A stretch of 64,000 nucleotides of DNA from Dehalococcoidia bacterium (GTDB lineage: Bacteria; Chloroflexota; Dehalococcoidia; UBA2979), in NCBI GenBank assembly GCA_965262725.1, contig OZ253555.1:704001-768000 (forward strand), in the 5' to 3' direction. The notes beneath the pieces are model-generated. The model saw nothing but the letters and a program-made list of their open reading frames with translations. It had not been told where the DNA came from and ran no database searches. Both the position numbers and the translations under genes were made by a program. Positions 27,836-43,232 of this stretch are shown one piece after another; position 1 is the first letter of the stretch, and every line of letters starts with the position of its first letter.

Positions 27836-28564
27836 CTACCGCGACCGTCGGAGAGAGAGATCGGCAACGACGCCGAAGTGATCTGAGAGCTCCCGCTCCT
27901 CGAGCATATTACTGATCACGTACACGTGCTCGACCGTCAGATCCTCGCTGAGCGCGATGTGGTCGATGCTCTTGCGGTCATTGTGGGTAACCGGACCGGT
28001 CGCGATCGTGATATCCGAGGAGAAGCACTCGCGGAGCGCCGACCTGGTCCTGGCCGGCGCTCGGCCGCCCGGACCGACGACCTGATTGAAGTCGCCCATC
28101 ACGATGAGGCGCTCTGAAGTCCCCCGCCTCAGGATCGCCGTGAGACCGGCCACGTACCGCTCGTGGTCCTCCCACCGCCGCTTGCGCCCCGGCCCGCGGC
28201 GCTCCTCGGTCCGCGACCCGAACCAGGGGATGCAGACCCCGATCACGGTGACGGGTCCCAGTGATGTCCGGGTGATGCCGGACACGTACCGCCCGGGCGG
28301 CATCGAGGTGAGGCCCGCGTCGTCGACGTGCTCCCACGGCTCCCGGGACCAGAGCATGACTTTCCGGCGGTGCTCCCGGATCGGGTAGCCGTAGTCGGGC
28401 CCTGAGCGGGCGACGCATCCGTCTGGAGCAAGCAGCTCGTCATGGGTCTCGGTGAGGCAGAGCACCTCGGGATCCCAGCCGGCAATGCGGCGCAGGATCT
28501 CCGGCGTTCGCCGCGATCTGGGAGTCGCCCACCTGACATTCCACGTCGCCACCCTCAGCTGCAC
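27836..28564 (-). CDS. endonuclease/exonuclease/phosphatase (EEP) family protein
   Basis: VATWNV, LCLTE, MGDFNQ, IDHI, SDHFGV; RBS GAAGGAG before GTG. Confidence 0.9.
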   Translation of the reverse strand: MQLRVATWNVRWATPRSRRTPEILRRIAGWDPEVLCLTETHDELLAPDGCVARSGPDYGYPIREHRRKVMLWSREPWEHVDDAGLTSMPPGRYVSGITRTSLGPVTVIGVCIPWFGSRTEERRGPGRKRRWEDHERYVAGLTAILRRGTSERLIVMGDFNQVVGPGGRAPARTRSALRECFSSDITIATGPVTHNDRKSIDHIALSEDLTVEHVYVISNMLEERELSDHFGVVADLSLRRSR

Positions 28565-29159
28565 GCTCGACTCCTTCGGGTGTGCGCCTTGAAGTTGAAG
28601 GACGGTGCAGGATGACCTGACCAGTCTGGAGACGTGCTCGTTGTCGCCAACCGGTGCAAGTCCGGTCCGGGTAACTATCAGGAGGCTCGGTAGCAGGTCG
28701 GCGGCTTGGTCTGGAAACGGACCGGGTCGGAGCCCGACGTCGAAAGCCCTTTCAGGGGAAGCAAACACACGGTCCGCAGCATAAAGCGAAGCCTGCCGCG
28801 TCGTAAGAGTCCCCGCCATTGGCGGGAAAGAGGAAGAGCCGAGCCCCGACCCTCAGGGCGAAGGCCATGGAAGAGATGAAGACCTGGAATCGCAATCTCG
28901 AAGAACTTCCCGGCGTAAGGGGCGTGGAACGTGTGGAAGGTGACAACGGGAACAAGGGAGGCCCTCCCCGGCCCGGTACCTGCGGAATGGTGTCGGAGTG
29001 AGGCGTCCTATAACCGGTGATGAGCCGGGAAGTGGGCGACCTGCCGGGAGGGAGTCGGAGGCGGCCATATTACCGACTGAGCCGAGCGGACAACAGAACC
29101 GCCGGTGAGGGAAGGGCCGCTACTTCGCCTGTGCGTGTTGCTTGGGGAAGGATCGGTGA

Positions 29160-32100
29160 GTGCCCGTGGAGGCTAGACCCGCCAAGGAAACGGTCCGAGA
29201 ACTACAGCGCACGCTCTACCGGGCGGCCAAGGCCGAGCCCGGACGACGTTTTCATGCGCTCTACGACAAGGTCCACCGCAGGGACGTTCTGGAGCGCGGG
29301 TGGGGGCAAGTGCGTCGCAATCGCGGCGCAGCCGGCATCGACGGCATCACCCTTGCCGAGGTCGAACGCTACGGCGTGGACCGACTGCTTGACGAACTGT
29401 CCGTGGAACTGAAGGCGGAGAGCTATCGCGTGCAGCCGAGCCGCCGGGTCTGGATTCCCAAGCCCGGACGGTCGGAGCGACGACCGCTCTCTATCCCGAC
29501 GGTCCACGACCGCATCGTACAGGCAGCGCTGAAGCTGGTGGCGGAGCCGGTCTTTGAGGCCGACTTTCTGCCGTGTAGCTTTGGCTTTCGCCCGAAGCGT
29601 GCGGCGCATGATGCCCTGCAAGTGCTCATTGATGAGACGTGGCGGGGTCGGCGATGGGTGGTGGAGACGGATATCGCCTCGTGTTTCGAGTCGATACCGC
29701 GTGCGTCCGGAAGTCGAAGGGGTGGTGACGTGATGACGTGACCGGTCCGGAGACATGCTCGTTGCTGCCAGCCGGTGAGAGTCCGGCACGGGTAACTGTC
29801 AGGAGGCCCGTTAGCAGGTCGGCGGCGTGGACGGGAAACGGTCTGCGTCGAAGCCCGACGTCAAGAGCCCTATGAGGGGGAGCAAACGTGCGGTCCGCAG
29901 CATGACGCGAAGTCTGCCGCGCCGTGAGACTCGCCTGTCTATTGACAGGACCAAGGAGGAGCCGAGCCCGGGTGGTCAGGGCGAAGGCCATGGACGAGGT
30001 GAAGATCCTGGAATGCAGCCTCAAGAAACCTCCCGGCGTATGGGACGTGGAACGTACGGAAGGTAGCGACGGGAACCGGAGAAGCCCTCCCCGGCCCGGC
30101 ACCCTGTGAGAGGGCGTCGGAGCGAGGCGTCCTATAACCGGTCAGAGCCGGGAAGTGGACAGCCAGCCGGAAGGGTGGCGGAGGGGGTCGTAGTACCGCT
30201 GGAGCCGGACGGACAACATAACCGCCGGTGATGGGAAGGACCCCTACTTTGTCCGTGCATGTTGCTGGGGGTGTGGACTGGTGAGTGCCCCTCGGGGCTA
30301 GCAACCACTTGGTAGGGTTCGAGGCTCTCCGCACATGCTGTACCGGCTGGCCAAGGCACGACCCACGTTGTGGGGAGCGCTGCATGCCATCTGGTGAAGG
30401 GCATCGGTGAGCCGGATGAGGGGTGCGCCAAGCTAACTGGTGTTTGGACAGGGGGTGAAAGTCCGCCGCGGTGAAGGGGCTAGCCACCCTACACCGCTCC
30501 CCGAGCCGTGCGTGGGTCGCTGCGAGGCGGCACGCGAAGCGTCGGTAGGGGTACATGTGGGCAAGGCTATAGAGCGCCGAAAGTGGCATCGTTCGGAGTG
30601 CCGAGGCTTTCTCGCAGGTCGAAGGCAACAGCGGCGGCGGCGTTTTTTTTTGGCGAGCCGTCGCCGTCTCCGCGGCGTCTAAGAACCATTGCACGCATGC
30701 ACGTCCATCACCGGGACTTGGGAGAGCTGCGCGCCGCCCCGGCGAGTCGTACGTCGGGGCCGCGTCGGGAAGGGAGGCAACCGTAGCCGATGATGAACGA
30801 CGCGCAGCAGTCTGATGGGGCCGTACGAGCGATGAAGGCGGCGAACAAAGGGGCGCGAGCCCTGGCGGAGTCGCTGGAGCAAAGGGCCCCAGCCGAGAGG
30901 AATCGGCGACGCTCCGGCACAGTCCGGTCTCAGAATCGGGGAGCTGTGTCACCCGGAGCGGAGCGGATACGGCAGCTCGCAGAGAAGAAGCCGGGAGAGA
31001 AACTCATCGCGCTCCTGCACCACATCACGCCGGAAACACTCAAGGAGGCGTACCACGCTTTGAAGCGGGACGCGGCTCCGGGCGTGGACGGGGTGACGTG
31101 GCGGGAGTACGGGGACGGGCTGGAAGAGCGACTGCTCGACCTGCACGGCCGCGTGCACCGGGGAGCGTATCGGGCGAAGCCCGTGCGGCGGGTAGAGATA
31201 CCAAAGCCGGACGGGGGCATACGACTGCTCGGTATCGTCACGCTGGAGGACAAGATCGTTCAGCGGGCAGTGGTGGACAATCTCTTGAATCCGATATTCG
31301 AGTCGGAGTTCTGCGGCTTCTCGTATGGCTTCAGGCCGGGGCGCTCGGCGCATGACGCGCTGGACGCCCTGGCCTACGCGGTCGAACGGCGCAAGGTCAG
31401 TTGGGTTGTCGAGGTGGACATCCGGCAGTTCTTCGACAGCATCGACCGGGAGCGGCTGATGTCGTTTCTGGAGATGCGCATCGGGGACCGGCGGGTGCTG
31501 CGCCTGATACGAAAGTGGCTGAACGCCGGCGTCATGGACGCGGAGACGGAAGTCGACTTTGTGCGGGGGACGCCGCAGGGAGCGCCGATATCGCCGCTGC
31601 TTGCGAACGTGTACCTGCATAACGTGCTCGACGACTGGTTCGCGCGTGTGTGGCGACCGCAGGAGGCCCAGGGCGAGGCGTACATCGTGCGGTATGCCGA
31701 TGACTTCATCCTGGGGTTTCAGCATCGCAGCGATGCGATGCGGTTCATGGAGGCACTCCGGGAGCGGTTCGCGGCCTACGGGCTAGAACTGCACCCGGAG
31801 AAAACCCGCCTGCTGTCGTTCGGTAGGTTCGCAGCGGCGAACAGGCGGCAGCATGGGGAGGGGCGACCGGAGACGTTCGACTTCCTCGGCATGACGCACT
31901 ACTGCCGGACGATGCAGAACGGGCGATTCGGGTTGGGGCGTAAGCCCTCAGCGAAGCGTATGCACCGCACGCTCAAGGCCATTAGGGCCGAGTTGCGGCG
32001 GCGCATGCACCACAACCCGGTGAGCGTGGCGCAGTGGCTAGCGCGGGTACTGCGTGGGTGGCTTGGCTACTACGCGGTGCCGACGAGTTATCGGTTCCTC

Positions 32101-33279
32101 CACCGCTTTGTGCAGACCTTGCTTCGCATGTGGTGGCAGGTCTTGCGGCGGCGGTCGCAACGGGACCGTTTCTCGTGGGAGCGCCTCGATGCCCTGTGCC
32201 GGGACTACTGGCCCCGAGTCTCCATCCTCCACCCGTGGCCAACGCAGCGATTTACCGTCAGGACTCAAGGCAGGAGCCGGATGCACTAGCGTGCATGTCC
32301 GGATCCGTGCGGGGGGTGCCGGGTAACCGGCATCCCTACCGCGAAAGAACCTCACGTCCGGTTCGATGTGGCAGGGGCTGGAGACGGACGCTGCTATGGC
32401 CGTGGAGTTGGGCACCACCGGGAAACCGGCTTGGAACTGATGCGCCACCGCCTACGGCTCGCACCGCGCCAGCCCCTGACCCTACACGACCGGTTGATGG
32501 AGGCGGTGGAGGAGCGGATATATGACCGGAAGCTCCTGAAGCTGGTGCGGGCGATGCTCCGTGCCGGGGTGATGGAGTCCGGGGCCGTGCGGCACAGCGT
32601 GACGGGTACGCCACAGGGCGGGGTAGTATCCCCGCTTCTGGCCAACGTCTATCTGCACCGGGTTGACCGGGAATGGGAGACGAGGGGCCGGGGAGTGCTG
32701 GTGCGATATGCCGACGACCTTGTGGTGCTCTGCGGAACGCAGCGGGAAGCGGATGCGGCGCTGGCGCTGCTCCGTGAGCTGGTCGCCGAGCTCGGACTGG
32801 AGCTGAAGGCGGAGAAGACCCGCATCGTGCACCTGGCGGAAGGAGGCGAGGGGCTGGAGTTCCTCGGCTTTGAACACCGGTGGGTACGGGCTAGGCGGGG
32901 TTCGAATCTCCGATTCCTTGCACGCTTTCCCTCGCGACGAGCGATGCAGCATGCACGTGACCGCATCCGTGAGATGACGGTGCGGTCACGGTTGGTGTTG
33001 AGCGTGGAGCGCATCGTGCAGGAGGTGAACCGCCTCCTGCGCGGCTGGGCGGGCTATTTTCGTTACGGGAACGTGGCGAAGTCGTTCCGCAAGCTCAGTG
33101 CGTACGCCGCGTTGCGGCTGGTGGTGTGGTGGGGTAAGCGTCGGCGCAGTCGGCAACGTCTGCGGTACGGCGTGTCATACCGCCATGCGACCCGCCTCGG
33201 TCTGCTCTCGCTCAGTGGATGGGTTGTCGCACCGCGGCCGAACCGGTCGTGGCGGGTGAAACCGAATGCCGTCCGGTGA
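29160..33279 (+). CDS. ltrA: outer intron RT/maturase, split: 29160-29700 joined to 32486-33279 (444 aa)
   Basis: Removing 29701-32485 restores FESIP|HDRLM in frame; GTPQGG, RYADD and X domain; no En domain. Confidence 0.85.
30423..32345 (+). mobile_element. group II intron 3 (inner, with intact ORF)
   Basis: 5' GTGCGC; DV GAGCCGGATGCACTAGCGTGCATGTCCGGATC; DVI ends CCCTACCGCGAA. Confidence 0.9.
30790..32289 (+). CDS. ltrA: group II intron reverse transcriptase/maturase
   Basis: APGVDG, IPKPDG, SYGFRPGR, GTPQG, RYADD; 499 aa. Confidence 0.95.
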   Translation: MMNDAQQSDGAVRAMKAANKGARALAESLEQRAPAERNRRRSGTVRSQNRGAVSPGAERIRQLAEKKPGEKLIALLHHITPETLKEAYHALKRDAAPGVDGVTWREYGDGLEERLLDLHGRVHRGAYRAKPVRRVEIPKPDGGIRLLGIVTLEDKIVQRAVVDNLLNPIFESEFCGFSYGFRPGRSAHDALDALAYAVERRKVSWVVEVDIRQFFDSIDRERLMSFLEMRIGDRRVLRLIRKWLNAGVMDAETEVDFVRGTPQGAPISPLLANVYLHNVLDDWFARVWRPQEAQGEAYIVRYADDFILGFQHRSDAMRFMEALRERFAAYGLELHPEKTRLLSFGRFAAANRRQHGEGRPETFDFLGMTHYCRTMQNGRFGLGRKPSAKRMHRTLKAIRAELRRRMHHNPVSVAQWLARVLRGWLGYYAVPTSYRFLHRFVQTLLRMWWQVLRRRSQRDRFSWERLDALCRDYWPRVSILHPWPTQRFTVRTQGRSRMH

Positions 33280-33751
33280 AGGGCGTCGGTAAGCCGGATG
33301 CGGGAGAACCGCCTGTCCGGTTTGACGGGGAGGAGCTGGAAACGGGCGATATGCCATGGCCGTGGGATTGGGCACCGCGGGGAAACCTGCTCGGAACAAG
33401 AGCGCCACCGGCCTACAGCGCGTACCGCGCCAGCTCCTCACCCTACTCGTCCGGAAGTCCGAAACGCGAGTCATGCCCTCGGCTCCCGGATACCGTCCCG
33501 AGTTCTCACGACAACGACCGACGCGCGGCGGGGCCGATCCCGACGGTTGGGGAAAGCCCCGCTTCCCCGGCATCGTCGCATCCTGCGCCACCGGCTGGCG
33601 GAGCCAGCGTTCGCTCGGCTCCTCGTCCCTGAGGGCATCTCTGCTTCGGCGTGTACGGCCGTGCGCGCCGCCCTCTGCGCTCAGGTGCCGGGAGCGCCGG
33701 GGTGCCGGCCGCCGGACAGCCGTGGGGGTGAGGCATGACAGAATGCGCGCC

Positions 33752-43135: not shown

Positions 43136-43232
43136 TGGCGGGAGTGCGTGGGAGTCGAACCCACCCAGGACTGCGACGCAGCCCCACGACGGTTTTGAAG
43201 ACCGCGGGCACCACCGGACACCATCCACTCCC
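43136..43232 (-). tRNA. selC: tRNA-Sec (anticodon UCA)
   Basis: 97 nt; CTTCAAA anticodon loop; long variable arm; GTTCGACTC T-arm; 8-bp acceptor stem; GCCA end. Confidence 0.95.

Follow-up and report, generated by a model that had tools for sequence, protein, structure and literature searches.

Three nested group II introns

The 64,000-nt stretch analyzed here (the window; contig OZ253555.1, positions 704,001–768,000 of the forward strand) comes from a Dehalococcoidia bacterium and carries three group II introns on its + strand, nested as C within B within A, of which the innermost, C, splits the catalytic domain V (DV) of its host. The nest was recognized by an Rfam scan, by reading of the sequence and by comparison of copies. 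In the window, the scan returned two domain I–IV matches of the RF02003 type (28648–28784 in A, 91.8 bits, and 29769–29905 in B, 102.8 bits) and one of the RF02005 type (30458–30687 in C). At a relaxed threshold, it further returned two matches to the DV/domain VI (DVI) model RF00029, at 32272–32345 (30.3 bits) and 33289–33446 (36.5 bits), both below the gathering score of 40.

The outer intron A (28582–33446) is interrupted by B inside its reverse transcriptase (RT) gene. Its 5′ segment (28582–29700) comprises domains I–IV and the N-terminal part of the RT open reading frame (ORF; from 29160), and its 3′ segment (32486–33446) comprises the remaining RT/maturase ORF (to 33279), a DV starting at 33291 and the DVI. 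The 5′ end at 28582 was fixed by a GTGCG start together with comparison with two other A copies, and the 3′ limit by the divergence of the three A copies beyond 33450. The break in the ORF is reflected in the profile matches, with RVT_1 found on the ORF at 29160–29741 and both RVT_1 and GIIM on the ORF at 32368–33279. The middle intron B (29701–32485), a member of the family here called Y, has no ORF and has its DV interrupted by C. Its 5′ segment (29701–30422) extends up to the 5′ half of the DV and has about 25 other copies that match it at 100%, and its 3′ segment (32346–32485), which comprises the 3′ half of the DV (32346–32364), the DVI and a 3′ tail, is likewise 100% identical to other Y copies. 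The boundaries of B are further defined by contigs of two sequencing runs in which 29699 is joined to 32485, as in an A-type ORF without B. The RF00029-type DVI match of B stops at a first CCTAC (around 32455), with the true 3′ end lying about 30 nt beyond, at a second CCTAC (32485), and the match in A (3′ region 33400–33446) reaches its end only via a long insertion; in RF02003-type introns such as A and B, the 3′ region may therefore be longer than usual or duplicated.

The inner intron C (30423–32345) begins with GTGCG at 30423, and its ends are set by the exact restoration of a Y-family DV upon its removal. It matches RF02005 over the full model (positions 1–225) with 152.6 bits and an E-value of 7.7e-44; in the literature, we found no mapping of RF02005 to a named bacterial intron class (A–F, CL or ML). 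Its ORF (30790–32289) encodes an RT/maturase of 499 amino acids (aa) with YADD and matches to RVT_1 (1.2e-40) and GIIM (5.7e-05; 23.5 bits, cut-off 23), and a domain profile search found no other family in it, an endonuclease included, at E ≤ 0.001. The presumptive DV of C itself (around 32274–32305), read by eye as GAGCCGGAUGCAC-UAGC-GUGCAUGUCCGGAUC, and the following DVI, with a bulged A32338 seven bases from the 3′ end, together occupy 32274–32345, where the weaker of the two RF00029 matches lies. The stop codon of the RT ORF (32287–32289) falls within the terminal loop of this DV (GCAC-UAGC-GUGC), and the ORF therefore extends into the catalytic hairpin. Since the position that corresponds to the target of C reads UGCACU here, C's own DV would be a poor target for C.

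The insertion site in domain V and its occupation in a second genome

C follows the first base of the terminal loop in B's DV, with G30422 and A32346 as its immediate neighbors. An earlier note on this DNA had proposed that the inner intron lies in the loop region of the host DV, and this is now certain, because the host halves GAGCCGGATGAGGG (30409–30422) and AGAACCTCACGTCCGGTTC (32346–32364), when joined, rebuild the exact DV of the 27 intact Y copies, and because B without C (862 intron and 5 exon nucleotides; 862–867 nt compared) matches about 25 genomic copies at 100%. Precise removal of C restores the intact outer intron B, as in a twintron, and the joint of 30422 with 32346, from which C is absent, was found in contigs of all four runs. 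Either the insertion of C is recent, or B stems from a very recently amplified family. Within the 5′ half of the DV (30409–30422), which is identical in the 27 intact Y DVs and constitutes the target of C, the computed pairings place intron-binding site (IBS) 2, GCCG, at 30411–30414 and IBS1, TGAGGG, at 30417–30422.

In the following, G000 denotes the window genome, G010 (also G001) a second genome of the same GTDB family but of a different genus, and G005 a further genome. The junction between the host DV and C is bridged by a contig from another study's run (30372–30794); given its nine substitutions and 5-base gap, we take it as a variant copy at the same junction, and the gap itself corresponds to a shorter T run that is also present in G010. 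A further contig (X1, 30393–30795), with just 30 bases to the left of the junction, was not counted as a bridge.

G010 emerged from an RT scan of species-representative genomes, which yielded 11 loci, five of them in this one Dehalococcoidia metagenome-assembled genome (OZ252250.1). It holds the closest RT homologs of C (89–91% aa identity) and three full-length C-type copies that are 92.5–92.7% identical to C at the nucleotide level, start with GTGCGCC and carry the same hairpin with exon-binding site (EBS) 1. All three are flanked by ...GAGCCGTGTGCGGG on the 5′ side and AGAACCGCA... on the 3′ side and share the DV position of C in the window; in full, the flanks read ...GGTGAGCCGTGTGCGGG and AGAACCGCA(C/T)G...GGTTCGAGGT, and the host DV is of the A type. 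A fourth DV 3′ half adjoins the 3′ part of a recombinant between C and its sister family C′ (described below). All four DV 3′ halves of the host type in G010 thus directly follow a C-type 3′ end, and no empty DV of the host pattern was found in this genome, compared with 42 in the window genome. The window copy, the three full-length copies and the one further 3′ junction in G010 all lie between GGG and AGAA of a DV. In the recombinant (L034; G010:C1:2448996-2450811), the 5′ part is C′-like and has the C′ target as its 5′ flank, and the 3′ part is C-like and is followed by the DV 3′ half, an arrangement that shows homologous recombination between intron families residing at different sites.

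The fifth C-type copy of G010, itself interrupted by an insertion, lies at GGTGAGCGGCGGCGCGGG followed by AGCG. This sequence resembles the DV strand, and the site is outside any recognized intron (the Rfam scan covered its 3′ side only). A copy at a DV-like site outside introns is as would be expected for sequence-guided retrotransposition. The three hosts of the full-length G010 copies are in different states: one is cut by an IS21-type element, one has a frameshifted RT and no host-like sequence upstream of locus position 846, and one is full-length with a weak RF02003 match. The insertion point of the IS21-type element (L031:1-1907), which comprises an IstA-like transposase fragment and an IstB ATPase, is 166 nt upstream of the C copy within the interrupted host intron. 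C and two of the three full-length G010 copies retain an intact RT ORF, and the ratio of nonsynonymous to synonymous substitution rates between C and the G010 copies (0.23–0.31) is as expected for a lineage that would have been maintained through repeated transposition.

The window genome contains 60 RF00029 matches, which represent five or more families when grouped by DV sequence. Among these, the ORF-less Y family comprises about 28 copies that are mutually 100% identical (29701–32485 and genome-wide, e.g. G000:C1:13752-14618), and a Y DV is found about 830 nt upstream of the DV in 10 of the 12 copies of the X family and in one other A copy. Taken together, these two features indicate that the Y family uses the RT ORF of related introns as its homing site and has undergone a very recent burst. 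The window host B belongs to a different subfamily from the G010 hosts, and its DV differs from theirs by a compensated pair (GAGG/CCUC versus GCGG/CCGC). G005 has one empty A-type DV and no C.

The earlier note had suggested examining the flanks of close homologs for DV matches. Its expectation held for the closest homologs, those of G010. A metagenome RT scan returned 18 loci, one of them close (78%, partial) and the other 17 at 36–43% aa identity; among relatives of this 36–43% class from genomes and metagenomes, several of which have 5′ ends that are not exactly fixed, DV halves were absent from the 12 5′ flanks and the nine 3′ flanks examined by Rfam and by eye. A phylum-wide search of 401 genomes (without G010) for the junction pattern AGCCGNNTGNGGGGTGCG gave five matches outside G000, none of them intron-like, against four for the reversed control, and a search of viral contigs for the C-type EBS1 hairpin gave no match.

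Two further features of the window lie outside the nest proper. An ORF of the Exo_endo_phos family on the − strand (27836–28819) overlaps the 5′ end of intron A, which is therefore positioned antisense to that gene, at its start or close by, and a selenocysteine tRNA gene (RF01852, 71.6 bits) is located at 43140–43232 on the − strand.

Proposed recognition of the target strand

The EBS1 hairpin of C (30605–30620) corresponds to the hairpin loop that is variable in the RF02005 model, and the hairpin that the earlier note had recognized from its CCGAG-loop-CGAAGGC context is therefore real. It consists of a GGCU/GGUC stem and an 8-nt loop, UUCUCGCA. The register of EBS1 within this loop was derived from three sister families, C′ and Z among them, which share the scaffold of C and in which EBS1 corresponds to the last six of the eight loop bases. 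In C′ (loop CUUGGAUU), bases 3–8 pair with GAUCCA or AAUCCA, with at least five of six pairs in 10/10 copies and all six in nine, and in Z (loop UUCCCAUU) the same bases pair 6/6 with AAUGGG in all three copies. Because of this homologous register, we assign EBS1 of C to CUCGCA (30611–30616). At two G010 sites, CUCGCA pairs with UGCGGG at all six positions, with one wobble and −7.0 kcal/mol. UGCGAG, which Rfam prints as the DV sequence of the RF00029 consensus, is perfectly complementary to CUCGCA by Watson-Crick pairing (−8.2 kcal/mol). A loop variant in G010 (L032/L104; G010:C1:2661347-2661368), UUCUCUCA, would pair 6/6 with the UGAGGG of the Y and X types (−5.7 kcal/mol).

EBS3 is proposed to be U30670, which occupies an unpaired column of the RF02005 consensus and would pair with A32346, the first base after the insertion. 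In support of this proposal, position 30670 covaries with the 3′ exon, being U opposite A in the four C copies with known 3′ exon and G opposite C in nine C′ copies, and the EBS3 position can pair in four of five distinct wider relatives. Exon recognition by C would accordingly be of the subgroup IIB-like kind, with EBS3 in an internal loop rather than a delta base beside EBS1. EBS2 is assigned less certainly. By alignment with the EBS2 of C′ (AGGGC, which pairs with GCCCU), it would correspond to 30584–30590, that is, UGGC (30584–30587) plus UC after a bulged A, and would pair with (GA)GCCG in the catalytic-triad strand of the host DV; RNAduplex gives this bulged pairing with GAGCCG −6.5 kcal/mol at the window site and −6.3 kcal/mol at a G010 site. 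As regards chance, a random site of the window genome pairs with CUCGCA at five or more of six positions at a rate of 0.020, and all three pairings as found at the G010 sites occur at 2.5e-5 per random site.

The sister families occupy other sites. C′ is present in the window genome as eight full-length copies (L002-L009, e.g. G000:C1:1849781-1851697) that are 85% identical to C and start with GAGCG rather than GUGYG. Their target, ..AGCCCTGATCCA followed by CCGA.., is conserved and differs from that of C. C′ inserts at the 3′ base of the hairpin TGGATCAGGGataaGCCCTGATCCA, immediately after its last base, and at several copies this hairpin is part of a longer palindrome, CGCACTCTTCTTCGG ... 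CCGAAGAAGAGTGCG. Z (L022-L024; G000:C1:2020542, 1951737 and 1921199) has three copies with a C-like domain I, inserted directly after ..CATCGAATGGG, and opposite-strand C′ copies are found about 94 nt past the 3′ ends of two of them. Insertions of 1.3–2.2 kb in turn split several C′ copies (L010-L020; G000:C1:1521918-1526026 and 3504461-3507929), and at least one of these insertions includes a Y copy (1524130-1524991); the window genome therefore contains further nests elsewhere.

A probable lineage of introns homing into domain V

These findings make it probable that C represents a lineage of endonuclease-less, RT-encoding group II introns that home into DV and are known from two related genomes, and that the cognate homing site of this lineage is the DNA for the DV of RF02003-type A, X and Y introns, with the window copy as a near-cognate insertion. 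The suggestion of the earlier note that C is an intron-on-intron hyperparasite targeting DV is supported in its core by the G010 copies at the same DV position. In the proposed mechanism, the ribonucleoprotein of C would read the 5′ strand of the DV by base pairing, with EBS2 (UGGC..) on GCCG of the catalytic-triad strand, EBS1 on UG(C/A)GGG of the upper helix and EBS3 (U30670) on the following A, and would then reverse splice into the DV terminal loop, between its first and second bases. Reverse transcription may be primed at replication forks, by analogy with other introns that lack an endonuclease. In the window, the insertion would have been a near-cognate one (A–G mismatch at −4) into a member of a recently expanded, ORF-less host family. 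Because the host DV exists in RNA only after C has been removed, splicing would proceed in the order C, then B, then A. Given the role of DV, a host with a split DV should be capable of neither excision nor retrohoming while it contains C, so that a C-bearing host copy would not be mobile as a composite; new host copies would therefore start empty and be invaded later.

Several observations weigh against this reading. C is single-copy in the window genome, where no donor copy is visible, and only one of the 43 DVs of the host type there is occupied, the empty ones comprising 27 of Y, 12 of X and three of A, the last of which bear the fully matching UGCGGG. The distribution is narrow, with the C-type EBS1 hairpin present in 2 of 99 family genomes (one copy in G000 and four in G010) and the C-type domain I in 2 genomes of a class-wide sample of 401; many of the sampled class and family genomes are fragmented, so that repeats are possibly missing from them. 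At the window site itself, CUCGCA pairs with UGAGGG at five of six positions, with the A at −4 opposite a G (−1.3 kcal/mol, isolated oligos), and one G010 copy carries an EBS1, CUCUCA, that is mismatched to its own site, UGCGGG. In addition, two occupied G010 sites share identical near flanks and recombination among these elements is evident from the C′/C recombinant; such recombination, or gene conversion, may have carried C from one host copy to another.

Alternatively, C may be a passive passenger that entered a DV once, long ago, and was then multiplied at the DNA level (by duplication, recombination or gene conversion) without any preference for DV. The two G010 sites in question are identical over 166 nt upstream and 99.3% identical over 146 nt downstream, their C copies are 99.9% identical, and both the recombinant and a single C among 42 DVs that are still empty in G000 fit this picture. 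Against this stand the complementarity of EBS1, EBS2 and EBS3 of C to the DV strand, with sister families on the same scaffold carrying EBS sequences that fit their own targets, and the copy at the DV-like site outside introns. Furthermore, over 1298 nt upstream, two G010 hosts share 98.2% identity, whereas their C copies share 94.7% and one of these copies has the loop UUCUCUCA; this unequal divergence and the differing EBS1 loops argue for separate insertions. The G010 copies and their hosts lie in differing downstream contexts, where a split-DV host should not have carried them as a composite, the host subfamilies and DV sequences differ between the two genomes, and the RT is under purifying selection. 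The independence of the C insertions at DV is thus supported, and we regard the passenger explanation as unlikely. A chance retrotransposition, in which the window copy would be a one-off ectopic hit, its true homing site would lie elsewhere and its location in a DV would be meaningless, draws on the local IBS1 mismatch in the family register, the low occupancy in G000 and the 2% of random sites that pair at five or more positions. It is highly improbable, as G010 has C-type copies at this very DV position, with full pairing at two sites, and as all five C-type hairpins of the 99 family genomes are accounted for, four in DVs and one at the DV-like site, with no other conserved target for this EBS type found among these genomes.

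The alternative that concerns the mechanism rather than the lineage is that of the earlier note, which took the first six loop bases, UUCUCG (30609–30614), as EBS1, had them pair with UGAGGG largely through wobbles, used the preceding T30608 as a delta base for the first A of the 3′ exon, and saw in the U-rich EBS a tolerance of purine variation among DVs. The pairing itself exists at the window site, where it is complete (three Watson-Crick pairs and three wobbles) and more favorable than that of CUCGCA (−3.3 versus −1.3 kcal/mol as isolated oligos). At the G010 sites, however, the same register gives a mismatch and three wobbles (+1.2 versus −7.0 kcal/mol for the homologous register), and neither the 10 C′ copies nor the Z family conform to it. 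With its cognate target, EBS1 forms mostly Watson-Crick pairs and a single wobble, and the argued tolerance of DV variants falls with the register on which it was built. In the Rfam alignment, T30608 is part of the hairpin stem (U30608–G30617), and covariation with the 3′ exon is seen at T30670 instead. We therefore find this mechanism improbable as the general mode of recognition. Because the UUCUCG register is favorable at the window site alone and unfavorable in G010, the CUCGCA register is taken as cognate, although the insertion event in the window may itself have proceeded through UUCUCG. A bulged pairing of the free RNAs that RNAduplex finds at the window site (−4.2 kcal/mol, isolated loop and exon) was set aside, as it ignores the ribozyme context.

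If C is indeed a DV-homing lineage, one may speculate, tentatively and with considerable doubt, that it is an obligate hyperparasite engaged in an arms race with its host introns. In such a scenario, the G010 hosts that match EBS1 (UGCGGG) would all be occupied and decaying, and the thriving X and Y hosts would owe their state to a compensated DV variant (C–G to A–U, giving UGAGGG) that mismatches EBS1, all but one of their 40 copies being uninvaded; the EBS1 variant CUCUCA, which matches this putative escape allele, would already have arisen in G010. Were this the case, selfish ribozymes would be shaping the sequence of one another's catalytic core. The complementarity of EBS1 to the UGCGAG of the Rfam consensus would then hint at a host range that is potentially broad.

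Twintrons and homing into introns are established phenomena. In Methanosarcina acetivorans, nested group II arrays are described as arising by repeated site-specific homing into other introns, several levels deep, with other introns serving as a "perpetual homing site" (PMC4424553). This resembles the present nest, but the targets there, going by the cited title, are intron ORFs, whereas the target of C is a DV, whose interruption disables the host ribozyme until C is removed. In Thermosynechococcus elongatus, ORF-less TeI3 introns are reported within TeI4 introns, and identical inner copies in diverged outer copies were read as independent insertions (PMC2882425). These twintrons resemble the insertion of B (family Y) into A and X introns in the window genome, an arrangement of the ordinary known kind, that is, ORF homing. 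The TeI3 site is described as lying between the first two ATGs of the domain IV ORF, with the outer ribozyme intact and composite mobility considered possible (PMC2882425), unlike the DV loop occupied by C. The first twintron to be reported, in chloroplast psbF of Euglena gracilis, is described as a group II intron inside the DV of another (PMC8393795). As presented there, it is a single organellar case with degenerate introns, whereas C appears to belong to a lineage that is mobile, encodes an RT and recurs at one DV position across several host copies and genomes. For a bacterial twintron of Trichodesmium, sequential splicing was demonstrated, and the account given places the inner intron in domain I of its host at a single locus in a host gene (PMC4649490), as opposed to DV in the case of C. 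Intron insertions in domains IV and I are described in lycophyte mitochondria. Our literature searches returned no account of bacterial or archaeal introns that, as a lineage, home into DV, and we therefore take a mobile lineage with DV as its probable cognate site to be the new element here.

The described bacterial and archaeal cases of intron homing, in the sources cited, hit ORFs or domain IV and spare the host ribozyme, whereas the C lineage hits the catalytic hairpin. Since the host should be able neither to splice nor to move before C has spliced, C would be a true parasite of the host ribozyme. Four sister families with four EBS sets further point to retargeting within one scaffold, and their comparison helps to fix the EBS positions in the little-studied RF02005-type structure. 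The nest would thus offer a natural system for the competition between mobile ribozymes, for the origin of obligatory ordered splicing and for parasite pressure as a possible cause of sequence change in the best-conserved element of group II RNAs.

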